Shown here one piece after another: positions 1,901 through 15,977 of a DNA stretch of 17,345 nt. The notes beneath the pieces were generated by a model. That model ran no database searches. It saw only the letters and a program-made list of their open reading frames with translations, and was not told where the DNA came from. The DNA is from a virus. Lineage: Duplodnaviria > Heunggongvirae > Uroviricota > Caudoviricetes. The stretch lies in the IMG/VR virus record IMGVR_UViG_2690316028_000014, positions 1 through 17,345 of that record; one strand, written 5' to 3'. The translations under genes were made by a program, and so were the position numbers. Each line of letters begins with the position of its first letter. The first letter of the stretch is position 1.

Positions 1901-2769
1901 GCTGCCCCCTTGGAACGGTAAGAATCCCAGGTGAATGACAGCGTGCACCCGCCGCCGTCGCTCATGCGGTCAATAACACGCTCACTCACGAACGCTGCCA
2001 GTTCTTCTTTGGTCTGGTTGCTGATCAGGATGGTCGGCTTCATACGCTCATAACGGGTGTTGATGATTTCGAACATGATCAGCTTCTCGGCCTCGCTGCC
2101 GAACTGGACGCCAACTTCGTCGATGATCAAAAGGTCCGGAGTGGTGAAGTGCGCAATCACGTCGTTCTCGCAGCGCGTCGCTGTTTTCGACCACGTTGAT
2201 TTGAATTCGCGGGCAATCTTCAGCGCGGTGGTGAAAATTACCGGGCTCTGGTGGTTCTCGATGACATAACGGGCGATCGCCAGGGCGAGGTGGTTTTTAC
2301 CGGTTCCCGGCTTGCCGCACATCACCAGGCCACCACCCTGCTTCAGGCGCTCTGGCCACTTCGCGGCATACGCCTGGCAAACCCGCAGCGCGCGCTCTGA
2401 CTCCTTCCCCACCGGCTGATAGCTTTCCAGCGTGCACGTTACAAAGCGCTCAGGGATTTCGAGCTGGCGCAGCAGGCGATCGATGTTCTGCTGGCGCGTG
2501 CGGTCTTCCCACCGCTTTTTCTCGTCATACAGGAAGGTCAGCTCATCGCGAAGGCAGCCCGGACAACGAGTCGGCGGTGACGGCAGCTTGATCAGGCTGC
2601 TGGTAAGCACGCGTTTACGCTGTTCGTACTCGCCATGTTTCTCGCAAAGCACTGTTTCGAAGACGGTCTCGCAGTTAGGGAGCTGCTCTGGAGGTCTACC
2701 AAGGACTTCCAGCATTTTTTCGATAGCGTCGATTTTTTCGAGCAGTTCCATACTCAGTCCCTCGCCCAA
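1897..2769 (-). CDS. DnaC/IstB-like AAA+ helicase loader (replication protein, lambda P position)
   Basis: Walker A GKPGTGKNHLA and Walker B LLIIDEVG; N-terminal Cys pairs; lies immediately downstream of and overlapping the O-like initiator. Confidence 0.85.
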   Translation of the reverse strand: MGEGLSMELLEKIDAIEKMLEVLGRPPEQLPNCETVFETVLCEKHGEYEQRKRVLTSSLIKLPSPPTRCPGCLRDELTFLYDEKKRWEDRTRQQNIDRLLRQLEIPERFVTCTLESYQPVGKESERALRVCQAYAAKWPERLKQGGGLVMCGKPGTGKNHLALAIARYVIENHQSPVIFTTALKIAREFKSTWSKTATRCENDVIAHFTTPDLLIIDEVGVQFGSEAEKLIMFEIINTRYERMKPTILISNQTKEELAAFVSERVIDRMSDGGGCTLSFTWDSYRSKGAA

Positions 2770-3608
2770 GATGGAATTTCAGTCTGGCCATAGTCCTTGC
2801 CAGCGAAGTTCTCAGATACGCGAGACTGATTGCGGGCTGGCTGCTTGATGCCTTTCGGCTCAAACAATCCCTGCCAGCCGTTCGCAATGCTCTGGTTGAT
2901 GATTTCTTCAGGCTGATATCCGCTGCACTTGCAACGCTCGAGCAGGTTGATGGCCTGGGTAACCGTCTGCTGAGACTTGATCGGTTTCTTCAGGTCGCGA
3001 CGATAATCGACCCATGACTTCCAGACTGAAACTGACAGCCATTCAGGAAGCTCAACACCGGCCGGATCGAACGAAGCCGGTTTGGGGGATTTAGGGGGTT
3101 TATTAATATTGTCTTTATTGTCTTTTGTATGTTTGTCTTTTGTGTTTACCTGATTTGGGTAAGTGTCGTTACCTGATTCGGGTAAACATTTCTTACCTGA
3201 TACGGGTAAATTTACCTCTTTCAGGTAAACTTTGTTTTCGTTACCTGATTTGGGTAATTTCACCCATTCGCTGACCGATTTGTTAATGCCCACAGTTCGC
3301 CCGATTTGGGTAAACACCCCGCGCCTGACTAACGCACTTTTAGCCGCAGAGCATTTGTGTGGGAGGATTCCGGTCAGGGCAGATAACTGATCATTGCTTA
3401 CCCAGTCCGCCTTTTTGTTGAAACCGTATGTTTTGCGCATTACTGCCATGAAGACCAGCAGCTGATGCTGAGACAATCCAGCCAGCATGACAGCCTCCAG
3501 AAGTTCATTGGCGATGCGCGTATAGCCATCATCAAGATCTGCCACGCGCGGCTCCTTAGGTGCCACGTCAGGCACAGGGAAATTGATTACTTCGGCAGTG
3601 TTTGCCAT
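2754..3608 (-). CDS. O: Replication initiator, lambda O-like
   Basis: N-terminal region (ANELLEAV...LSQHQLLVFMAVMRKTYGFNKKADWVSNDQLSALTGI...KCSAAKSALVRRGV) matches the lambda O N-terminal domain family; iteron array and AT-rich tract lie inside the gene as in lambda; RBS GGAG before the ATG at 3606-3608. Confidence 0.85.
   Translation of the reverse strand: MANTAEVINFPVPDVAPKEPRVADLDDGYTRIANELLEAVMLAGLSQHQLLVFMAVMRKTYGFNKKADWVSNDQLSALTGILPHKCSAAKSALVRRGVFTQIGRTVGINKSVSEWVKLPKSGNENKVYLKEVNLPVSGKKCLPESGNDTYPNQVNTKDKHTKDNKDNINKPPKSPKPASFDPAGVELPEWLSVSVWKSWVDYRRDLKKPIKSQQTVTQAINLLERCKCSGYQPEEIINQSIANGWQGLFEPKGIKQPARNQSRVSENFAGKDYGQTEIPSWARD
3146..3313. repeat. Replication origin iterons (ori-lambda-like) inside the O-like gene, with adjacent AT-rich tract at about 3100-3145
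   Basis: Five to six copies of an internally palindromic 17-mer TTACCTGATNNGGGTAA at 3146-3162, 3169-3185, 3193-3209, 3212-3228 (degenerate), 3241-3257 and a partial copy at about 3299-3313; flanked by ttattaatattgtctttattgtcttttgtatgtttgtctttt. Confidence 0.7.
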
Positions 3609-3690: not shown

Positions 3691-3912
3691 TCATGCTTCA
3701 AAATCTCCCTTCGCTCCATCCCGGTTAGAAATCAGGATGGCCAGCAGCAGCGACATGTTCGGTACCAGGCTCTCCTGCCAGCGGCTTACGGTTGATTTAT
3801 TTCTGCCAGCAACTTCAGCTATACGTGATATCCCCAGATCAGATATCTGGCTGCGTAACCAACTCTCTATCCTCCTAGCCTCCAATTTGTTGCGTGCGGT
3901 TGATGTCTCCAT
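3691..3912 (-). CDS. cII: CII-like transcriptional activator
   Basis: 73 aa; RIESWLRSQISDLGISRIAEVAGRNKSTVSRWQESLVPNMSLLLAIL parallels the lambda CII HTH core as recalled; RBS AGAGGAAG; located downstream of cro. Confidence 0.75.
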   Translation of the reverse strand: METSTARNKLEARRIESWLRSQISDLGISRIAEVAGRNKSTVSRWQESLVPNMSLLLAILISNRDGAKGDFEA

Positions 3913-3950: not shown

Positions 3951-4184
3951 TTAGGCGGCGTTGTTGTCGATCGGTGATGGGAACAGCGTCGGTAAGTCAG
4001 GGCGAATCTGGTAGGCCTGAATTTCACCACCAGTTGCTTTCACGATGCTGTTCACATGCTCCGGAGAAACCTTTGCTTTGTTGTGTAGCCACTTGTAAAC
4101 CGCCTGCTGCGATACTGCGCATGCTTCACCAAGGGCTTTTTGAGACCCGACGATGGTAATGGCGGTTTTAATGGTTGGATTCAT
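3951..4184 (-). CDS. cro: Cro-like HTH repressor
   Basis: 77 aa HTH protein (QKALGEACAVSQQAVYKWL) transcribed divergently from cI across an operator-rich intergenic region; RBS GGAGG. Confidence 0.7.
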   Translation of the reverse strand: MNPTIKTAITIVGSQKALGEACAVSQQAVYKWLHNKAKVSPEHVNSIVKATGGEIQAYQIRPDLPTLFPSPIDNNAA

Positions 4185-4288: not shown

Positions 4289-5014
4289 ATGAAAACGACA
4301 CTCGCTGAAAGACTGAAGGAAGCCAGGACATTACGAGGCCTTACACAAAAGGCTCTCGGGGATCTGGTTGGGGTAAGCCAAGCTGCTATCCAGAAGATAG
4401 AAACGGGAAAAGCTAACCAGACAACAAAGTTGGTAGAGCTGGCAAATGCTTTGATGGTTAAACCTGAATGGCTAAGTTCAGGTGTTGGCCCCATGCGATC
4501 AGACGCTAAAGAATCAAATATTGGTCCTGAATCAGAGTGGGGAACTGTCGACGCATGGGACAAAAACACCCCGCTTCCTGCTGACGAGGTTGAAGTGCCT
4601 TTTCTTAAGGATATTGAATTTGCTTGTGGCGATGGACGCGTTCAATGCGAGGATCACAATGGCTTTAAGCTCAGGTTCTCAAAGGCAACCCTCCGACGCG
4701 TTGGAGCTAATACAGATGGGTCTGGCATCCTGTGCTTCCCTGCTACTGGCGACAGTATGGAACCCGTAATACCGGATGGTACGACTGTAGCCGTCGATAC
4801 GAACAACAAACGCATAGTTGATGGGAAACTGTATGCCATTGGTCAGACAGATGGCGGGAATGGTCAACTCAAGCGCATTAAACAGCTGTATCGTAAGCCA
4901 GGCGGAAAGCTAATTATCCGCAGCTACAACAATGAGGCCTACCCTGATGAAGAAGCTGACATTGATGATGTTGAGATAATCGGCCGCCTCTTCTGGTACT
5001 CGGTATTGCTGTAG
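4289..5014 (+). CDS. cI: CI-type prophage repressor (HTH_XRE N-domain plus S24 LexA-like peptidase C-domain)
   Basis: N-terminal HTH (LTQKALGDLVGVSQAAIQKIETGK); C-terminal GDSMEP with Ser156 and Lys195/198 at lambda-CI-like spacing; candidate Cys113-Gly114 autocleavage site. Confidence 0.9.
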   Translation: MKTTLAERLKEARTLRGLTQKALGDLVGVSQAAIQKIETGKANQTTKLVELANALMVKPEWLSSGVGPMRSDAKESNIGPESEWGTVDAWDKNTPLPADEVEVPFLKDIEFACGDGRVQCEDHNGFKLRFSKATLRRVGANTDGSGILCFPATGDSMEPVIPDGTTVAVDTNNKRIVDGKLYAIGQTDGGNGQLKRIKQLYRKPGGKLIIRSYNNEAYPDEEADIDDVEIIGRLFWYSVLL

Positions 5015-5274: not shown

Positions 5275-5466
5275 GCGCTATGAGATCAGGCATCCTCGTT
5301 ACTTTGTCATGTGTGACAGCCTGGTATGCACTCTGCGAGCTTTGATGTGGTTTACCACTTTAATAGTCACCGTATCACTAAACTGATTAGCTTTACTCAT
5401 ACTCTTGTGGATTCGCTATTTCTGATGTCAATGCAAAAAAATACTAAGGAAACAAAAAGGATACTT

Positions 5467-5733
5467 ATGTCAGATAACACTATTAAAATCATACCTCAGC
5501 ACATGACCGCCACATCAGTTCTTATTACGCCTGATCGTGCTGAAACAATCATTACTTTTTACCGCCATGAATTTGAGCATCACATGCAGTCTGATGAGCA
5601 AGGAAAGAATAGCTTCCAAGTAAAAGTTGAGTTGACCCCTAACATGTCAGTCTCAATGAGCCCGGATCAAGCTGTTGCATTAGTAAAATCATTACAGGTA
5701 GCTCTCAGGGATAATGGGCTATGGAAAGACTGA
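5467..5733 (+). CDS. Hypothetical protein (88 aa) in the AT-rich cI-adjacent island
   Basis: Track ORF 5326..5733 trimmed to the ATG at 5467 preceded by AAAAAGGA; visibly AT-rich coding sequence; no recognised family. Confidence 0.5.
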   Translation: MSDNTIKIIPQHMTATSVLITPDRAETIITFYRHEFEHHMQSDEQGKNSFQVKVELTPNMSVSMSPDQAVALVKSLQVALRDNGLWKD

Positions 5734-6371
5734 AGCCAGTTTCTTCAGTTCAACCTACCTCAGGAACAACATCATCAGTTCTTCCAAGTATTATAGTTAG
5801 TGCAACCCTAGCAGCGACAACCGTTTCTCCTTATGGGGATCCATCTCAGTACCAAAGTATTGGTATTGATGCTAAGGTATCAAATAGAGTTTCATACGCC
5901 ATGGACGAAACGGGTTTGCGCCCAAGTAAGGAAGATGTAGCGATGAAGAGTGATACCCTGGAGGTAAGCGTGAGCGGAATGTCCAGAGAAGAACTTGACG
6001 CAAAGCTTTCACAAAACAAATCAGAGGTAGAGTCTATTGCTGCGGAAATGCGTCGCGAATCAGCTGACTTTAAAACCTATTATACTCAGCAATTTTCTTC
6101 TATTGAGAGAGGTATTGCTGAAATTAAAGGTGAAATCGGCGGTTTGAAAACGGGACTTACAACGACTCAGTGGGCGATGGCCGTTGGCTTGACTTTAGTT
6201 ACTGTGATTCTGTCTGGCGTGATGTTAGCCTCAAGTTGGATTATCTCCGGCAATGACAAGTCACCATCAGTAACCAGCCCGGCTCCAATTATAATACAGG
6301 TACCGACACAGCAACCATTAACGAGCGCTCCAACTAACCAATCGTCATCACAACAAGCTCCTAAGCAATAA
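5721..6371 (+). CDS. Membrane-anchored protein (216 aa): S/T-rich N-region, coiled-coil, C-terminal TM helix, S/T/Q/P-rich tail
   Basis: Long open frame in AT-rich DNA; start overlaps the upstream stop by 13 nt; alternative internal start at about 5944 with strong RBS TAAGGAAG; TM segment WAMAVGLTLVTVILSGVMLASSWII; followed directly by a terminator. Confidence 0.6.
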   Translation: MERLKPVSSVQPTSGTTSSVLPSIIVSATLAATTVSPYGDPSQYQSIGIDAKVSNRVSYAMDETGLRPSKEDVAMKSDTLEVSVSGMSREELDAKLSQNKSEVESIAAEMRRESADFKTYYTQQFSSIERGIAEIKGEIGGLKTGLTTTQWAMAVGLTLVTVILSGVMLASSWIISGNDKSPSVTSPAPIIIQVPTQQPLTSAPTNQSSSQQAPKQ

Positions 6372-6376
6372 ATAAA

Positions 6377-6403
6377 CCCGGCCACCGCGCCGGGTTTTTA
6401 TTT
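6377..6403. terminator. Bidirectional Rho-independent terminator
   Basis: CCCGGC-cacc gc-GCCGGG hairpin (6377-6394) followed by TTTTTATTT on the plus strand and preceded by AAATAAATAAA (U-tract for the minus strand); ends both the plus-strand island and the minus-strand 68-aa ORF. Confidence 0.75.
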
Positions 6404-6604
6404 GCCCTTCCGTACCATCTCAGCCGCATCCCGTAGCACCCCCTTGTGGATCACGTTCCCGACGGCTTTACGCTTCCCTTCCAGAAATCCCACAATGTTG
6501 TCTTTGTTGATCTCAATCCCGTTGTAAATCAGTTCGAACACCACACACCCAACCTCTCCAGCCATGAAGGCCATCCGGTCATCTGCAAGTTCATCACGTT
6601 CCAT
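6398..6604 (-). CDS. Hypothetical protein (68 aa), convergent with the cI island
   Basis: Track ORF 6398..6958 trimmed to the ATG at 6602-6604 with GGGGGTGG upstream; E. coli-like codon choice; the longer N-terminal extension runs through AT-rich promoter DNA and is rejected. Confidence 0.5.
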   Translation of the reverse strand: MERDELADDRMAFMAGEVGCVVFELIYNGIEINKDNIVGFLEGKRKAVGNVIHKGVLRDAAEMVRKGK

Positions 6605-6688
6605 AGCCACCCCCTGATGTTTTTTGCAGCATAGCACCAATCTTTTATAAAAATAAATTCCTTTTAAATACAACCAAATAAAACCAAA

Positions 6689-6742
6689 ACAACTATAAAT
6701 ACAACTATTGTTGTTGACGATAAAACAACTATGGTTTTTAAT
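6689..6742 (+). promoter_or_regulatory. OL/pL-like operator-promoter cluster driving the early-left (recombination-int) operon
   Basis: Three direct ACAACTAT copies at 6689, 6701 and 6725 (12- and 24-bp phasing) plus an inverted GTTGTTG; promoter TTGACG (6714-6719), 17 bp, TTTAAT (6737-6742); shares CTATGGTT with the OR region. Confidence 0.5.
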
Positions 6743-7287
6743 AAGTCCATCGAAACGAAACATCGACAGCTGAGCGAAGTTAGCCAGCGGCGGACAGCAA
6801 GTCGCCTGCTTCTTTAACAAATCAGACTGAGTGACAGGCAAGCCGTAGCTCTCCTGGCAAAAAGAAATGGCACCCGATGGGATCGAGGTAAGCACTGAGT
6901 CCGTATGCGTACGGTAGGTGTAGAGGACCACGCTGCGATGAGCTGATAAGTCACTCAATTTGAAGCGCTCCGATGATGGGGCGCTGATTCAACTTAGAGG
7001 AGTGATTCCAATGAAGAACTAAAGCGGACAGACCGCAGCCTAAAGGCAATGCAGCAGTAATGATGCCGCCCTGAGTCGCCGAATGGCGAGCCTGTGTAGT
7101 GATGGGTCAAGGTTCTTATATCAAAACAAGCTCCGGTAAAGCAGCGCGAACGCCAGACGCGCACCGGTTATGAGCGGCGATGAGCGACAAGGTCTCAAGG
7201 GCATGTGCGCGGCCACTGCGAGAGTGTGGCGAAGTTTACCAGCAGCTCTTTGCGAGGGGCTGACGGTAAACAAAAAGAGGAGTGTGT

Positions 7288-7629
7288 ATGGCAGATAAAA
7301 AAACGGCGCCACTACTGCTTAACGTAGACGCCAGCGAGGTACTTACTCAGACCGGGGAGCTTTTAAAGTTACTTGAACTTCCAGCCAGTTCCTTTCAGGG
7401 AATTCCTGAGCATGTCGTCGATCTGTTTTTTGACCGTGTCCGTGGCCTGATTGACAACATCGTCCTTAGTGATTTCTCGACCACAGTCAGCACAACTGAC
7501 GCCGGTGAAATTTGTCTCAAAGTCAAAATCATCGGGCTGGTTGAACATCTCACTTCCGCAGTCAGGGCACACGGTCCGCATGGTTTGCATGAATATATCC
7601 TTTCTACTGTTGGGGAGATTAAAGAGTAA
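7288..7629 (+). CDS. Hypothetical protein (113 aa), first ORF of the early-left operon; mutually exclusive with the antisense zinc-ribbon ORF
   Basis: Strong RBS GAGGAG 5 nt before the ATG at 7288; on the strand transcribed from the pL-like promoter; Leu codons mostly CTT/TTA, so it could be a shadow of the minus-strand ORF. Confidence 0.35.
   Translation: MADKKTAPLLLNVDASEVLTQTGELLKLLELPASSFQGIPEHVVDLFFDRVRGLIDNIVLSDFSTTVSTTDAGEICLKVKIIGLVEHLTSAVRAHGPHGLHEYILSTVGEIKE
7369..7590 (-). CDS. Candidate zinc-ribbon protein (73 aa), antisense to the 7288-7629 ORF
   Basis: CPDCG-(19 aa)-CADCG four-Cys motif; RBS AAAGGA 7 nt before the ATG at 7588-7590; host-preferred codons; the Arg-rich N-terminal extension in the track (to 7821) is rejected. 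Confidence 0.35.
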   Translation of the reverse strand: MQTMRTVCPDCGSEMFNQPDDFDFETNFTGVSCADCGREITKDDVVNQATDTVKKQIDDMLRNSLKGTGWKFK

Positions 7630-7848
7630 GCGATTTCTTGCTGTTGGGGAATAGCGGGAAAGCGCGCGCCGGGCGCGGATAAATACCCCGGCACTAACTG
7701 GAATGTTTTGGGCTGGCAGACGGTTATCAGCTAGTTGGTGAGGTAATGGCTCACCAAGGCGACGACGGCCTTCCCTGCTGCTTGAAAGCGGGGAGCCAGC
7801 ACCAAAACATTTCTCCCGCATCAGCGGGTAACGACAGAGGGTAAGGGT

Positions 7849-8094
7849 ATGTCAGATAAGCAGGTTCAACTGTCTGGTAAATGCGTCTTGAAGATAGACA
7901 CCATCAAAGGCAGCAGCACTATCGAAATACCAAAAGTGAATCTCAGCGGCAAAAACAATGCAGACGCTTTGCTTAATGAAGTGTTCCATTTTGGAGTAAT
8001 GCGTCACGGGAAAAACAAGCTTCGCGAAATGCTTGAAGAGAAGCTTGATGGCTACGGGGAAGAGTACGAAAACCATGGCCTCACTTACGACTGA
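7849..8094 (+). CDS. Hypothetical early protein (81 aa, acidic C-terminus)
   Basis: RBS AGAGGGTAAGGG before the ATG; immediately followed by an intrinsic terminator. Confidence 0.6.
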   Translation: MSDKQVQLSGKCVLKIDTIKGSSTIEIPKVNLSGKNNADALLNEVFHFGVMRHGKNKLREMLEEKLDGYGEEYENHGLTYD

Positions 8095-9627: not shown

Positions 9628-9912
9628 ATGAACGCATACCTCACTTATGACCGCATCGAAGATCGGCGCTGGGCTGAACAGCAGCTCACCGACGAGAAAG
9701 AGAAGTGGATCGACGACCGGGCGCAACAAATCATCGACATGATGCCAAAAGAGCCGTCCGGCCTCTTCCACTTCTCCGTACCGATTGACGCCAGTCCATA
9801 CGAAGGACTTCGCAGCGATAAAGCTGGCGAGGCCTACAACGATTTCATTTCGGCAGTTGCTTACGCCCAGGCGGAATACGACTGGGAACACCGTACCGGC
9901 TGCCCATTTTAA
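9628..9912 (+). CDS. gam: Gam-like RecBCD inhibitor
   Basis: 94 aa; MNAYLTYDRIEDRRWAEQQLTDEKEK...LFHFSVPID parallels the lambda GamS N-terminus as recalled ([30 protein letters not shown]...LFESLCID); sits immediately upstream of bet. Confidence 0.8.
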   Translation: MNAYLTYDRIEDRRWAEQQLTDEKEKWIDDRAQQIIDMMPKEPSGLFHFSVPIDASPYEGLRSDKAGEAYNDFISAVAYAQAEYDWEHRTGCPF

Positions 9913-9930
9913 TTTTTGAGGGGATTAACG

Positions 9931-10776
9931 ATGGCAAACGAATTAACAATCACAGCGACGTCGCTTCAGGAGATAGGCGTCGACGTCTCCACCTGGAGCG
10001 CGCTGAAGAACAGCATCTATCCTGGCGCCAAAGACGAATCGGTAATGATGGCGCTTGACTACTGCCGCGCCCGCCATCTGGATCCGTTGCTCAAACCTGT
10101 CCACCTCGTTCCGATGTACGTCAAAGACTCGAAAACAGGTAAAGGCGAATGGCGCGACGTCGTCATGCCGGGCATCGGACTTTACCGCATTCAGGCAGAC
10201 CGCTCCGGCGATTATGCCGGGGCTCGCGAGCCCGAGTTCGGGCCCGACGTAACTCAGACGCTTACTGGTGTCGAGGTGACCTTCCCTCAGTGGTGCAAAT
10301 ACACCGTTTTCAAGCGCATGCCCAGCGGCGAGATCGTCGAGTTCAGCGCTAAAGAATACTGGATTGAAAACTACGCCACCGGCGGACGTGACACCACGGC
10401 GCCGAACGCGATGTGGAAAAAACGCCCGTATGGACAGCTGGCGAAATGCGCAGAAGCCCAGGCGTTGCGCAAGGCATGGCCTGAGATTGGACAGCAGCCT
10501 ACTGCAGAAGAAATGGAAGGCAAATCGCTGGACGTTGATATTCGTGACGTCACCCCGCGCAGCACCACAGAAGCGCTTCCACCAGCAGCAAGCGAAGAAA
10601 CACTTCAGGCGATCACCGATCTCTTAACATCGCTGAATAAAGACTGGGAGCAAGACTTCCTCCCAGTGTGCAGCGACATCTTCAAACGGCCAATTCTTGA
10701 GGCGTCAGACCTCACTGAAGAAGAGGCACAGAAAGGGTTCAACTTCCTTCAGAAAAAAGCTAAGGCGGCAGCATGA
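9931..10776 (+). CDS. bet: Bet/RecT-family single-strand annealing protein
   Basis: C-terminus [40 protein letters not shown] parallels the lambda Beta C-terminus as recalled; start set at the ATG at 9931 (RBS GAGGGGA) rather than the track TTG at 9916; followed by exo with ATGA overlap. Confidence 0.85.
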
Positions 10777-11453
10777 CACCCGAAATTATCCTGGCCAGGA
10801 CCGGCATTGATGTGTCCACCGTAGAGCAAGGTGATGAAGCATGGGCCAAATTAAGGCTCGGAGTTATCACCGCCTCTGAAGTGCACAACGTAATATCCAA
10901 GCCGCGCTCCGGCACCAAATGGACGGGCATGAAGATGTCCTACTTCCACACCCTACTCGCCGAGGTATGCACCGGCGTCGCGCCAGAGGTTAACGCCAAG
11001 GCTCTGGCCTGGGGAAAGCAGTACGAGGAAGACGCCCGCACCCTCTTCGAGTTCACCACCGACGTGAAAGTCACGGAGTCTCCGATCCTGTTCCGTGACG
11101 AGAGCATGCGCACCGCGTGCTCCCCTGACGGCCTTTGCAGTAACAATTTCGGCCTCGAATTGAAATGTCCGTTCACCTCCCGCGACTTCATGAAATTCCG
11201 CCTCGGCGGTTTCGAAGCCATTAAGTCAGAGTACATGGCCCAGGTGCAGTACAGCATGTGGGTGACCGGGAAAGAAGCCTGGTTCTTTGCCAACTACGAC
11301 CCGCGCATGAAACGCGAAGGTATTCACCACGTCGTCGTTGAGCGGGATCCGCAGTACATGACCGATTTCAACGAAATGGTGCCGGAGTTCATTGAGAAGA
11401 TGGACGAGGCGCTGGCGGAAATCGGCTTCACGTTCGGGGAGCAGTGGAAATGA
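10773..11453 (+). CDS. exo: YqaJ/lambda-Exo-like recombination exonuclease
   Basis: 226 aa, called by its position as the partner immediately downstream of bet, with ATGA translational coupling at both ends; family assigned from this context and general sequence character, not from verified motifs. Confidence 0.8.
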
Positions 11454-11878: not shown

Positions 11879-12027
11879 CTCACGCTCACGACGACATCAG
11901 GGTAGGCACATTGTGCCTTCCCTTCATTGGTCACGGCTGGCTAATGCCATGGGGTGAAGTGGTCAGCAATCCATTAAAGGCGCAGCGGCTCGCTGAGGAA
12001 TATCGGGAAAGGCAGGAGGCGGCATGA
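11875..12027 (+). CDS. Small ORF (50 aa) coupled at both ends (ATGA/ATGA)
   Basis: ATG at 11875 overlaps the upstream stop and its own stop overlaps the methyltransferase ATG at 12024; GGAG 8 nt upstream; [50 protein letters not shown]. Confidence 0.35.
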   Translation: MTHAHDDIRVGTLCLPFIGHGWLMPWGEVVSNPLKAQRLAEEYRERQEAA

Positions 12028-14216
12028 AATACGGAAGCGTGTGCAGCGGCATAGAAGCTGCCAGTAAAGCGTGGGAACCTCTCGGCTGGAAACCTGCCTG
12101 GTTCTCTGAAATCGAACCATTCCCCTCAGCCGTCCTCGCCCATCACTGGCCGGAAGTAACCAACCTCGGCGACATGACCAAAATCGCCGATGCGGTCCGC
12201 GCTGGTGATGTCGAAGCGCCTGATGTTCTGGTCGGTGGTACGCCCTGCCAGGCATTCAGCATCGCCGGCTTACGCGAAGGCCTGTCTGACGACCGCGGGC
12301 AATTAACTCTTTCTTACGTGGAATTAGCCAATGCAATCGACACAAAGCGCCGCGAACTCGGTGAACCAGAATCAATCATCGTCTGGGAAAACGTCCCCGG
12401 CGTGCTCAGCAGCAAAGACAATGCCTTCGGGTGCTTTCTGGCAGGGCTTGCCGGAGAAAGCAGTGAGTTGCAGCCAGCAGGGGGAAAATGGACGCACGCA
12501 GGTTGTGTGTCTGGACCAGAAAGGGTTATCGCCTGGCGCGTCCTTGATGCTCAATTTTTCGGAGTGGCCCAACGACGCCGACGTGTGTTCGTTGTCGCAA
12601 GTGCTCGAAAAGGATTCGATCCCGCAGCGGTACTTTTTGAGTTCGACAGCGTGCGCCGGGATTCTGCGCCGCGCCGAGAAACGCAAAAGGCTGTTGCCGC
12701 CCTTACTGCACGAGGCGTTGGAACGTGTGGCGCAGACGACAACCAGGCACAAGCTGGACATCTGATTGCTTTTGGCGGTGGCAATACTACCGGCCATATT
12801 GATGTGGCGACCGCCTGCACCGCGCATGGGATCAGATTGGATTTTGATACTGAGACTTTCGCAGTGCACGGCACGCAGGATCCAGATACCAATTGCGAAC
12901 TGGCGCATACACTTGGGCGAAACAACGGACAAGAAAACGCCTGCATCGCATTTAGCTACAAAGATAATGGCGCTGATGCGACGTCGGATTTATCGCCAAC
13001 GATTCGCGCAGGAAACCACGATAAAAGCCATGCCAATAGCGGCCAGCCGCCAGCTATAGCGTATGCATTCAAGGCCGGACAGGGTGCTAAAGCGGGTGGC
13101 ATTGGTTACGCGGAAGAGCAATCACCGACATTAACCAGCGCCAGCAGCGGAACCAATCTTGCACCAGCGGTAATGCATGGCGTGGCAGTTCGACGACTTA
13201 CGCCAATTGAGTGCGAGCGGCTTCAGGGCTTTCCTGATAGTCACACTCTGATCGGCTGGCGCGGGAAGGACGCTGATGAATGCCCGGACGGGCCACGTTA
13301 TAAAGCTATCGGCAATAGCATGGCAGTACCGGTTATGCGTTGGATTGGTGAGCGCATCGCCGCTGCGCTTCCAGTCGAAGAGCCTGCACCGCGCAACTGG
13401 CAGCGCCCGTTCCTTAAATGGGCTGGCGGCAAATATTCGCTGCTGCCGGAACTGGATCGCCTGATCCCCGCAGGGAAACGCCTTATTGAGCCTTTTGTGG
13501 GTGGCGGCTCGGTGTTCCTTAACTCAGACAAGCACGAACGCTTTCTTCTGGCTGACGTCAACGCTGACCTGATTAACCTGTATCAGATGCTGGCGGTGGT
13601 CCCAGACTCGGTGATCTATGAAGCAATGAAGGCGTTCAGGCATCTGAATGATGCCGAAAACTACACGGAAATTCGTGAAGCATTCAACGCGCAGCGGCTG
13701 GATGCGGTTGAGCGCGCAGCAGCATTCCTTTACCTCAACCGGCACTGCTTCAACGGCCTGATCCGTTACAACCTGGACGGTTTTTTTAACGTCGGCTTTG
13801 GGAAATATAAAGCGCCATATTTCCCGGAAGAAGAGATCAGGGCATTTAAGCGGAAGGCTCACTCATGCGTATTCATGAATGCAGGCTTCAGGCGCACGCT
13901 CGCACTGGCTGGTGATGGTGACGTCATTTACTGCGATCCGCCCTATGAACCGCTTCCCGGCACCGCTGGTTTCACTAACTACGCGGCTGGTGGGTTCTCA
14001 TGGGATAGCCAGGTAGAGCTTGCGGAAAGCTGTGTGGCAGCCCACCAGCGGGGGGCAAAAGTGGTAATCAGCAATTCTACCGCACCGCGCGTAATTGAAC
14101 TTTACAAACAGCACGGCTTCACTCTGCACCGCGTAAGTGCTCGCCGCGCTATATCCAGCAAAGGCAGCACCCGCGAAACAGCGAGTGATGTCGTAGCCAC
14201 TTTGGGAGTGCAGTGA
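12024..14216 (+). CDS. Fused DNA methyltransferase: N-terminal C5-cytosine MTase (Dcm-type) plus C-terminal Dam-like N6-adenine MTase
   Basis: C5-MTase motifs SGIEAAS (I), GGTPCQAFS (IV), VWENVPG (VI), QRRRVFVVA (VIII), RRLTPIECERLQGFPD (IX), GNSMAVPV (X) within about aa 1-450; then KWAGGKYSLLP, EPFVGGGSVF and DPPY in about aa 455-730; single uninterrupted 730-codon frame with RBS AGGAGG. Confidence 0.85.
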   Translation: MKYGSVCSGIEAASKAWEPLGWKPAWFSEIEPFPSAVLAHHWPEVTNLGDMTKIADAVRAGDVEAPDVLVGGTPCQAFSIAGLREGLSDDRGQLTLSYVELANAIDTKRRELGEPESIIVWENVPGVLSSKDNAFGCFLAGLAGESSELQPAGGKWTHAGCVSGPERVIAWRVLDAQFFGVAQRRRRVFVVASARKGFDPAAVLFEFDSVRRDSAPRRETQKAVAALTARGVGTCGADDNQAQAGHLIAFGGGNTTGHIDVATACTAHGIRLDFDTETFAVHGTQDPDTNCELAHTLGRNNGQENACIAFSYKDNGADATSDLSPTIRAGNHDKSHANSGQPPAIAYAFKAGQGAKAGGIGYAEEQSPTLTSASSGTNLAPAVMHGVAVRRLTPIECERLQGFPDSHTLIGWRGKDADECPDGPRYKAIGNSMAVPVMRWIGERIAAALPVEEPAPRNWQRPFLKWAGGKYSLLPELDRLIPAGKRLIEPFVGGGSVFLNSDKHERFLLADVNADLINLYQMLAVVPDSVIYEAMKAFRHLNDAENYTEIREAFNAQRLDAVERAAAFLYLNRHCFNGLIRYNLDGFFNVGFGKYKAPYFPEEEIRAFKRKAHSCVFMNAGFRRTLALAGDGDVIYCDPPYEPLPGTAGFTNYAAGGFSWDSQVELAESCVAAHQRGAKVVISNSTAPRVIELYKQHGFTLHRVSARRAISSKGSTRETASDVVATLGVQ

Positions 14217-14499: not shown

Positions 14500-14847
14500 A
14501 TGGACGAAGAAGTATTTACCAGAGATGAGGCCGCCGCCTTCCTTAAAGTGGATAAAGGCACGATTGCCCAGTGGATAAAGTCCGGTCGCCTGGCTGCTAC
14601 CCGAAAAAATCCACATAAGAAAAAAAGCCCATACCTGATCTGCAAAACAGACTGTATTGCGGCAGTGAAGAACCCGATCCACAATCAACCTGTGAATGCG
14701 GTTGATGTGCAGGAGGATAAAGCATGTCAATCAAACAACGTGCCGGTACGTGGCACTGCGACTTCGTTACGCCTGGTGGAAGTCGAATTAGACGGTCTCT
14801 TGGGACAACGGACAAAAGGCAAGCGCAGGAGCTCTATGATCAGCTGA
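14500..14847 (+). CDS. xis: Excisionase (Xis/AlpA-type HTH)
   Basis: N-terminal [26 protein letters not shown] matches the excisionase-family HTH; directly upstream of int, overlapping its start by 124 nt in another frame. Confidence 0.6.
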
Positions 14848-15887
14848 AAGCTGAAGCATGGCGAGTTGATAAGATGGGGGAGTTTAAGCCGCGAACGTTC
14901 GATGAAGCGTGCGTTCGCTGGCTTAACGAAAAGCAGCACAAGAAAAGCCTGGACGATGACAAAAGCCGGATCGGATTCTGGAGGATGCACTTCAAAGGAA
15001 TGGACCTGTCAGCAATCACGGAAGACAGGATCTTGTCGGCGGTGAGTTCGATGGTTAATCGCAAACATCGAATGAACTGGGAGGCTAAACGGGACAGCCT
15101 GCTGCGAAGAGGTAAGCCGGTTCCTGAATTTAAGGATAAACCAGCGTCGCTGGCGACGAAGGCGACGCACCTTGCTTTCATCCGGGCGCTGTTACGATGC
15201 GCGGCCAACGAATGGCGATGGATAGCCAAAGCGCCGAACATCAAATGCCCGGTGCCGAAAAATAAGCGTATTCGCTGGCTAACCAAAGAGGAAGCGGCGA
15301 ACCTGATCCGGGAGCTTCCCGAGCATATGAAGCCAGTTGTTATTTTTGCACTGGCGACAGGGCTGCGCAGATCGAACATCACCGATCTGGAGTGGTCACA
15401 AATTGATATGCAGAGGAAGGTCGCGTGGATTCACCCCGAGGACGCGAAAGCAGGAAGGGCGATTGGGGTCGCCCTGAACGAATCGTCCTGTAAGGTGCTG
15501 CGGGAGCAACTGGGGAAACATAACCGTTGGGTCTTTGTTCACACTGAATCATCCGTTCGCCCGGATGGAACGAGAACAAAGGCAGTGCGCAAAATGCGGT
15601 CTGATGCTAACACGGCATGGCGCGCGGCGTTAAGGCGGGCGGGAATAGAAAATTTCCGCTTCCATGACCTGCGGCACACCTGGGCAAGCTGGCTTGTACA
15701 GTCCGGCGTGCCACTCAGTGCGCTACAGGAAATGGGCGGGTGGGAAAGTATCGAGATGGTGCAGCGTTATGCGCATCTGGCACCGAATCACCTGACGCAG
15801 CATGCCATGCAAATCGACTCATTCCTGGCGGGGAATGGCACAAATATGGCACAAGGCGCTTTTGCTGAACTGGTGAATATCGCGTGA
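14724..15887 (+). CDS. int: Tyrosine integrase (P22-like)
   Basis: 387 aa; RBS AGGAGG; catalytic signature [15 protein letters not shown] ... VQRYAHL (R-H-R-Y family); ends 15 bp from the tRNA-Thr 3' end. Confidence 0.9.
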
Positions 15888-15901: not shown

Positions 15902-15977
15902 TGGTGCCGATAAGAGGAGTCGAACCTCCGACCTTCGCATTACGAATGCGCTGCTCTACCAACTGAGCTATATCGGC
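15902..15977 (-). tRNA. thrW: tRNA-Thr (anticodon CGU)
   Basis: Reverse complement reads GCCGATATAGCTCAGTTGGTAGAGCAGCGCATTCGTAATGCGAAGGTCGGAGGTTCGACTCCTCTTATCGGCACCA: 7-bp acceptor stem, D-loop AGCTCAGTTGGTAGAGC, anticodon loop TTCGTAA, T-arm GGTTCGA, encoded CCA. Confidence 0.9.

Follow-up and report, generated by a model that had tools for sequence, protein, structure and literature searches.

What lies between the early-left promoter pL and the first gene of a lambdoid prophage in which no N gene is found? This question is raised by the 17,345-nt stretch of IMG/VR virus record IMGVR_UViG_2690316028_000014 (Caudoviricetes; hereafter the window), which comprises the immunity and early-left region of such a prophage. 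An earlier note on this DNA had described an ORF-poor leader of about 540 nt downstream of pL, and this is borne out: bases 6750–7287 are the ~540-nt untranslated leader of an N-less early-left (pL) operon, and the largest open reading frame (ORF) wholly inside the interval has at most 63 aa. The leader is, as its sequence relatives indicate, a mosaic assembled by recombination from self-contained RNA modules. Two of its parts, modules B and C, each belong to a conserved family in which base pairs show compensatory changes, in agreement with the note's proposal of a non-coding, RNA-level element and not a gene. By analogy with boxA signals elsewhere, boxA together with module B (boxA–B) may be an N-independent antitermination or anti-Rho module that uses host Nus factors, a reading to which we assign a probability of roughly 0.5. 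The leader and its flanks are organized as follows.

6714–6742, + strand: pL-type promoter, with −35 TTGACG (6714–6719), a 17-nt spacer and −10 TTTAAT (6737–6742)
6749–7287, + strand: leader studied
6749–6806, + strand: module A, the pL leader start common to phi80, HK225, HK639 and KO-TP1, with the terminal hairpin GGCGGACAGCAAGTCGCC at 6789–6806
6807–6820, + strand: boxA-like element TGCTTCTTTAACAA, which joins module A to module B
6821–6985, + strand: module B, a structured RNA of ~165 nt 3′ of boxA, with a closed multibranch fold and the terminal hairpin AGCGCTCC-GATGAT-GGGGCGCT at 6964–6985
6997–7022, + strand: Shine-Dalgarno sequence (SD) GAGGAG (6997–7002) and mini-ORF atgaagaactaa (7011–7022; ATG AAG AAC TAA, M-K-N-stop), with an SD–ATG gap of 8 nt
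7023–7232, + strand: module C, a pseudoknotted structured RNA of ~210 nt (6997–7232 with the SD and mini-ORF)
7233–7287, + strand: module D, a hairpin (TTTACC...GGTAAA) and the ribosome-binding site GAGGAG before ATG 7288
7288–7629, + strand: ORF of 113 aa, a homolog of HK639_45, which sets the 3′ end of the leader
7700–7840, + strand: module E, a second non-coding block, with a 47-nt near-copy of 16S rRNA helix 11 at 7723–7769
7849–8094, + strand: ORF of 81 aa
8093–8118, + strand: intrinsic terminator 3′ of the 81-aa ORF, hairpin GACCCGCTCCGGCGGGTT followed by TTTTAT

An untranslated leader without N

The promoter was placed by homology. Its −10 aligns with the annotated pL −10 of phi80 and with the 'putative pL' of HK639, and because of this alignment we infer a transcript start near 6749. 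A consensus promoter scanner did not detect pL, since position 2 of the −10 is T. The boxA variant is followed by at least 470 nt in which the three-codon mini-ORF is the sole conserved ORF, and among the small ATG-stop ORFs of the interval only the one at 7011 is conserved. An ORF of 186 aa with a TTG start on the opposite strand (6398–6958, −) is an over-extended version of a 68-aa gene at 6401–6604. The whole leader recurs at ≥99% identity in 12–14 complete Escherichia coli genomes; the lysogens ABWA45 and CX05 have an identical copy.

The absence of an N-type gene from the operon is supported by profile searches and by tblastn. Searches of the left-operon proteins against Pfam, PHROGs and NCBIfam returned no N-type protein and no arginine-rich N-type protein, and tblastn with phi80 N, two mEp213 N types, an N-like protein from IMG/VR and HK022 Nun gave noise only (all E > 0.3). 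Two checks that the earlier note had proposed, a search of Rfam and a comparison of relatives for structure versus coding decay, were carried out. Rfam 15 was scanned at gathering scores for the whole window, at E ≤ 10 for 6600–7900 and at E ≤ 1 for module C in ten other loci; the leader matched no family at gathering score or at E ≤ 10, and module C matched none at the ten loci at E ≤ 1. Among the relatives, structure is kept, with compensatory changes in modules B and C. The conserved sequence strings are absent from searchable papers, and an earlier description in the literature beyond that search is possible.

Comparison with phage genomes by blastn splits the leader into blocks with different relatives. 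The promoter-proximal segment (6753–6820) is 98.5% identical to phi80 and 97.1% identical to HK225. Block B (~6811–6985) aligns with Escherichia phage vB_EcoM-606R2, where it opens with a perfect boxA, GCTCTTTAACAA, and block C covers ~7008–7232. HK639 matches the window over ~50 nt at the start of the leader, over ~55 nt at its end and in the downstream ORF. Beyond boxA the identity with phi80 is lost, and neither the 'nutL core' of phi80 (locus L006, 2608–2619) nor its N gene has a counterpart in the window.

The boxA-like motif reported in the earlier note was recovered as CTTTAACAA at 6812–6820, inside the longer element at 6807–6820 and about 58 nt 3′ of the inferred start; the homologous phi80 position is annotated 'nutL boxA' (TGCTTTTTAACAA). 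The 9-mer CTTTAACAA occurs once in the window, with 0.13 occurrences expected, and 23 of 200 shuffles hold at least one, so that its count is not significant alone. The element is considered real because of its homology, both to the phi80 nutL boxA and to the canonical boxA in module B relatives. It reads as phi80 TGCTT joined to module B CTTTAACAA, and boxA seems to be the crossover point between modules A and B. The put RNAs of HK022 and HK639 are cis-acting, protein-independent antiterminators that bind the β′ zinc-binding domain. At one locus (L195, 1200–1286, +) a put RNA is represented by its 5′ half, which is joined to a canonical boxA (…ACCATGCGTCGGAACCGCTCTTTAACAA…), and the order put, then boxA is found in 2 loci. 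This fusion may be a further sign of leader modules recombining at or beside boxA.

Modules B and C

Conservation of module B runs from boxA to just past the hairpin matching 6964–6985, and the DNA upstream is AT-rich and unconserved. A 20-mer from the module is present in 83 IMG/VR viral contigs, and the module itself in 4 phage records and, unannotated, in 104 of 5426 E. coli genomes. In 65 of 85 copies the distance from the canonical CGCTCTTTAACAA to the module B anchor downstream of it is a constant 64 nt. A CI-type repressor is encoded by the upstream gene in 65 of the 85 loci, giving the order CI repressor, promoter, boxA–B, and no N-like protein was found among the downstream gene clusters of these loci. 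In the E. coli IAI1 prophage the order is CI, boxA–B, a convergent gene, DUF2800, DUF2815 and DNA polymerase, with Q for late genes only.

Compensatory pairs in module B (CG54/AU10/UA2, UA53/CG9/AU2 and GC55/AU10) are found in several helices. The hairpin CCGTA-tgcg-TACGG at 6901–6914, one of two small perfect hairpins that the earlier note had cited, is confirmed as a helix of the module B family. The window's module B folds better than shuffles (z = −2.2), and its minimum free energy structure is the same as the centroid structure.

Module C is likewise widespread. Its 20-mer occurs in at least 119 IMG/VR contigs, and 128 of 5426 E. coli genomes carry the module, in every case on the chromosome and without annotation; the E. 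coli lysogens 55989, IAI1, ABWA45 and O145:H28 RM13514 carry these modules. A scan of genome contigs with the 16-mer CTCAAGGGCATGRGCG gave only chance matches from unrelated phyla, so that statements on host range draw on the phage, IMG/VR and E. coli collections. The module always lies on the operon's strand, in contexts that include the pL leader (Hafnia phage yong1), the interval between nutL and N (mEp213 and Stx2c phages), the position just 3′ of Q and a strong terminator and before tRNAs (Klebsiella phage RothC), and the region 3′ of lysis genes (vB_EcoS-733R5). Clustering of the flanking ORFs across 125 loci gave these neighbours.

Upstream of module C, lysis-cassette lipoprotein: 27 loci
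Upstream of module C, CI repressor: 15 loci
Upstream of module C, Q (PF06323): 13 loci
Upstream of module C, Acb2/Tad1-hairpin protein (PF24729): 8 loci
Downstream of module C, N-like arginine-rich protein: 17 loci

Two loci with module C have features of their own. mEp213 carries two different annotated N genes in one left operon (locus L005, 1845–2177 and 3330–3602), with module C just upstream of the second. In a viral contig (L037, 2241–2312, −), two CRISPR-DR4-like repeats (29.7 and 31.3 bits, below gathering score) lie ~1 kb from a module C copy and could be a mini-array or solitary repeats.

The helices of module C in the window are the following.

P1: 7024–27/7033–36
P2: 7038–40/7045–47
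P3: 7051–55/7065–69
P4: 7076–80/7085–89
P5: 7091–95/7102–06
P6, pseudoknot: 7098–7100 with 7130–7132
P7: 7133–36/7164–67 and 7144–48/7158–62
P8: 7174–76/7208–10
P9: 7194–97/7204–07
P10: 7212–16/7226–30

A MAFFT alignment of 69 module C representatives showed hairpins that vary in length and a middle domain of two kinds. The 11 nested helices and the pseudoknot pair 90.6% of cells in this alignment, versus 24–41% with slid partners. After covariance-model alignment, which is biased towards the model's structure, 93.3% of cells are paired versus 28–47% for slid partners, with a covariation score of 0.167 versus 0.013–0.043, and 20 of the 45 pairs change on both sides. Compensation is found in P3, P4, P5, P9 and P10; at the third pair of P4, which is the helix of the other hairpin cited in the earlier note (CGCC-gaat-GGCG at 7077–7088), G-C, U-A, A-U and C-G are all seen. 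The frequent G-U pairs fit the + strand only. The window's copy scores 258 bits with the covariance model (R2).

RNAalifold on the raw MAFFT alignment found only 25 of the pairs later defined, and all-against-all column covariation was not used as stand-alone evidence because the split between long and short variants dominates it. CCCYGAG (7070–7075) can pair with CUCAAGGG (7194–7201), exclusive of P9. This long-range helix, favoured at first, was reduced to a possible alternative, as it competes with P9, which has a UA>CG compensation. The idea that module C is a miniature inverted-repeat transposable element was dismissed on visual inspection, since the two ends of the module are not inverted copies of each other. 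A variant, C′, was found at three loci on the − strand (L373, 5851–6078; L414, 7732–7960; L438, 2958–3185), scoring 36–39 bits with R2. Its core of ~170 nt differs from that of module C, whereas the SD, the mini-ORF, P1 and P10 are retained; the variant follows a boxA–B of the window type and has module E directly 3′.

The mini-ORF with its SD at 7011, to which the earlier note had drawn attention, turns out to be a feature of the module C family. A start codon (ATG in 70 copies), 0–2 sense codons (four in one copy) and a stop are present in 78 of the 82 distinct copies, compared with an ATG mini-ORF in 6.8% of shuffles, and most copies also have the SD. The stop ends 0–1 nt 5′ of P1 in 61 of the 78 (1 nt in the window). 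The encoded peptides (MKH, MKQ, M, MVH, MKN and others) are unconserved, suggesting that the act of translation matters and not its product.

Proposed function and its alternatives

In HK639 the leader start and the downstream gene match those of the window, but what lies between them is an RNA annotated as a putL-like antiterminator, whereas the window has modules B and C at that position. The leader also has the setting of put, with an early promoter just upstream and no N. A put-family antiterminator RNA like those of HK022 and HK639 is nevertheless highly improbable here. A put covariance model (R1; 26 sequences, 14 pairs) was built by locating HK022 putL and collecting its relatives from viral contigs; training members scored 83–93 bits and the untrained HK022 putR 23.8 bits (E = 2.5e-5). 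With filters off, the model (GAACGGCGCG...UAAACCAUGCGUCGG stem I and a covarying stem II) had no match in 6750–7290 at E ≤ 10. Module D is common to HK639 and lies there within the 'putL-like antiterminator RNA' feature (locus L001, 3089–3214), so that the last ~55 nt of this feature are shared with the window; these 55 nt lie 3′ of the part homologous to HK022 putL, which ends ~60 nt earlier. The silence of R1 and the position of the shared segment outside the putL-homologous region place the leader outside the put family. We also regard it as very unlikely that the interval is a decayed N gene, as the earlier note had allowed, or functionless recombination debris. Mosaic joints, one of them within boxA, and the absence of N would fit such an origin, but tblastn left no trace of the N types or Nun, modules B and C are each kept in ~100 or more independent contigs, where compensatory changes and hairpins of variable length are seen, and the leader is maintained at ≥99% identity in the E. 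coli genomes mentioned above.

The order of leader modules across loci was as follows.

boxA > B: 52 loci
put > E: 12 loci
boxA > C: 10 loci
boxA > B > C: 6 loci
C > E: 4 loci
boxA > B > E: 3 loci
boxA > B > C > E: 2 loci
put > C: 1 locus
put together with B: 0 loci

From these orders, put and boxA–B appear to be alternative first modules, and C and E optional later ones. Model R2 found module C in 0 of 100 put loci, and it found extra module C copies, including three divergent ones, in module B loci.

The proposed antitermination role of boxA–B is inferred from its position, from boxA and from the mutual exclusivity of put and boxA–B. BoxA–B would recruit Nus factors of the host in the manner of rRNA operons and CRISPR arrays or, in a less likely variant, act as put RNA does, and would thus stand in for put (HK639) or nutL–N (phi80). 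Polymerase could then cross 0.5–1.1 kb of untranslated structured RNA without Rho termination and reach, perhaps read through, the terminator at 8093. This terminator precedes the gam-like, RecT, exonuclease, methylase and integrase genes, an arrangement that we count as a need for antitermination. Module C would be an autonomous add-on, found in other phages downstream of nutL, put, boxA–B or Q/tR′. Its mini-ORF might load a ribosome at the foot of the fold, shielding or remodelling the untranslated RNA; this is a guess and the weakest step.

Among the systems compared, the leader would work at most like put and the boxA antitermination of the rrn/CRISPR type, and it is a member of none. Like put, it comes immediately after pL in a lambdoid phage that lacks N, and put and boxA–B both stand first among the modules, with C and E as optional followers of either. 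Put is ~70 nt with two stems (PMC9378689), whereas module B is ~165 nt, multibranched, tied to boxA, and without a sequence or structure match to the put model. As in rRNA operons and CRISPR arrays, the window boxA has a position close to the 5′ end of a long transcript that is untranslated and highly structured. In rrn leaders boxB precedes boxA, and the window has a hairpin immediately 5′ of boxA. BoxA with Nus factors shields long untranslated CRISPR transcripts from Rho (PMC7665894). The window differs from both in the sequence of its boxA, in the attached conserved 165-nt RNA, which has no rrn or CRISPR counterpart, and in being a phage operon with a downstream intrinsic terminator.

Likeness to the lambda and phi80 nutL–N system is confined to the promoter-proximal 68 nt, which are 98.5% identical to phi80 and include its 'nutL boxA'; the window has no boxB or nut core, module B following boxA instead, and no N gene. 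Lambda bar minigenes are two-codon ORFs of the pL operon that cause peptidyl-tRNA drop-off. The window likewise has a strong SD and an ORF of 1–3 codons in a lambdoid early operon, and drop-off of peptidyl-tRNA and recycling of ribosomes both increase as minigenes become shorter (PMC2490762). Unlike bar, the window minigene is attached to a conserved fold of 210 nt, and the residues that it encodes are unconserved. The lambda N-leader is a structured RNA, processed by RNase III, between nutL and the N start. Module C takes the corresponding place between nutL and N in Stx2c-type phages, mEp213 and ~17 IMG/VR loci. It differs in that it also occurs after Q/tR′ and lysis genes and has a mini-ORF and a pseudoknot, and no sequence similarity to the N-leader was found.

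Several points weigh against reading boxA–B as a Nus-dependent antiterminator with module C as its structured add-on. Compared with rrn boxA TGCTCTTTAACAA, the window boxA has a 1-nt insertion, which makes NusB/NusE binding uncertain and because of which a gapless boxA search allowing 2 mismatches found no match in the window. Complexes of the boxA type oppose Rho and are not known to overcome strong intrinsic terminators. The loci behind the exclusivity of put and module B were retrieved by exact sequence anchors, and their flanks were limited. Module C co-occurs with N (17 loci), put (1) and Q (13) and is also found mid-operon past lysis genes (27); module C itself is therefore not an antiterminator replacement. 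P7 and P8, the most conserved helices, are invariant, partly because the retrieval anchor sits in P7, and give no evidence either way. The single-sequence fold of the window's module C is no more stable than shuffles (z = +1.06), so that the case for its structure rests on covariation.

What module C does is the point on which the alternatives divide, and it is either a cis module, for ribosome loading or RNA processing, or a moron-like trans RNA. On the trans reading, which we consider rather unlikely for the leader as a whole, module C (perhaps also B and E) would be an accessory RNA cut from the transcript and acting as a decoy or sponge against a defence or host RNA-binding factor, or as a bar-like minigene RNA engaging ribosomes or tRNAs, with the leader serving as the earliest-transcribed site. 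It draws favour from an Acb2-like neighbour and from the hot-spot distribution of the module, which is self-contained and occupies three accessory hot spots (the pL leader, after Q/tR′, and after the lysis cassette) with neighbours unrelated between sites. In vB_EcoS-733R5 (locus L010, 2662–2955) and ~8 IMG/VR loci, an ORF ending 38 nt upstream of module C has the Acb2/Tad1 hairpin domain (PF24729, E = 1.1e-17), which belongs to an anti-CBASS/anti-Thoeris sponge family and would put module C there in an anti-defence or accessory island. A tRNA lies 18–163 nt downstream on the same strand in 8–9 loci, module E copies 16S helix 11, and a mini-ORF of 2–3 codons with a strong SD is a toxic minigene design (PMC2490762). 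Against this, the search for a conserved promoter or terminator belonging to module C came up empty, its upstream sequence being unconserved and P10 lacking a U run; the module is always co-oriented with the operon, and no partner protein proved to be conserved. That neither signal turned up for the module, promoter or terminator, speaks for a cis role, in which module C would be a switch or processing module: riboswitch- or attenuator-like, with the mini-ORF sensing ribosome traffic, or an RNase III-type leader separating polymerase-bound antitermination RNA from mRNA. As an explanation of the leader this too we rate as rather improbable. The placement of the stop 0–1 nt before P1 means that a terminating ribosome must open P1, the pairing of CCCYGAG with CUCAAGGG and P9 are mutually exclusive, and in early-operon copies module C stands between nutL, put or boxA–B and the first gene, with N ~154 nt downstream in 17 loci and boxA upstream in 12. 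Yet the sequence past P10 is unconserved, the followers are heterogeneous (N, unrelated ORFs, tRNAs and module E), no terminator or SD-sequestering platform is common to module C copies, no ligand class is suggested, and C′ keeps only the mini-ORF, P1 and P10 around its different core.

Neighbouring genes and wider meaning

Pfam, PHROGs and NCBIfam gave no function for the + strand ORF at 7288 or for the 81-aa ORF. The first is overlapped on the opposite strand by an ORF with a profile match:

7369–7590, − strand: antisense ORF of 73 aa, a CxxC...CxxC zinc ribbon (NCBIfam NF047912, 80.8 bits)

HK639 annotates the + ORF and RefSeq the − ORF, the latter over-extended to 7821. Mismatches in the overlap, sorted by codon position of the − frame, fall in the order 3rd > 1st > 2nd (33/18/4). 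The + protein has 61 of 98 identities to a Klebsiella phage homolog, kept also outside the overlap, and the − protein 53 of 73. In E. coli MB20 (NZ_CP073976.1, 2598295–2599506), an HNH endonuclease gene is annotated within the match to window 6747–7700, that is, the leader and the downstream ORF. The 16S-like part of module E corresponds to positions 237–283 of the Rfam small-subunit rRNA (SSU) model (32.2 bits, E = 2.7e-7). In relatives module E lies directly 3′ of put, module B or module C, and its helix could be a mimic of a ribosomal-protein binding site or a decoy.

The remaining features of the window are these.

2754–3608, − strand: O
3691–3912, − strand: cII
3951–4184, − strand: cro
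4289–5014, + strand: cI
5326–6371, + strand: two genes without an assigned function
6374–6397: terminator
6401–6604, − strand: gene of 68 aa, phrog_3975
9628–9912, + strand: gam-like gene
9916–10776, + strand: RecT
10773–11453, + strand: YqaJ-type exonuclease
12024–14216, + strand: Dcm-Dam methylase
14724–15887, + strand: integrase
15905–15977, − strand: tRNA

The methylase is a single ORF of 730 aa (12024–14216, +), with a C-5 cytosine methylase in residues 1–194 and a D12-class N6-adenine methylase in residues 466–710. The integrase gene is directly followed by the tRNA (71 bits), whose loop UUCGUAA was read as anticodon CGU (Thr), and this tRNA 3′ of the integrase is probably the prophage attachment site.

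Leader regions of this kind are now unannotated or covered by spurious 'hypothetical protein' calls. About 2% of complete E. coli genomes contain module B, as do dozens of viral contigs with N-less left operons, and module C is a widespread, covariation-supported RNA with a mini-ORF at its foot, outside Rfam 15. To our knowledge, protein-independent phage antitermination is known from one RNA family, put. We tentatively propose, as a possibility on the weaker side, that boxA–B is a new class of N-independent, RNA-based processive antitermination signal and that module C is a new class of ribosome-engaging phage RNA, a minigene with a pseudoknotted fold whose own function might be shielding, a ribosome or tRNA trap, or an anti-defence decoy. 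If this is true, boxA–B would be a second RNA route to processive antitermination, serving a sizeable group of enterobacterial prophages, and phages would use the host's rrn-type Nus machinery without N. The leader and the 16S helix-11 copy would then form a series of functional RNAs that are the first to be expressed upon induction or infection.

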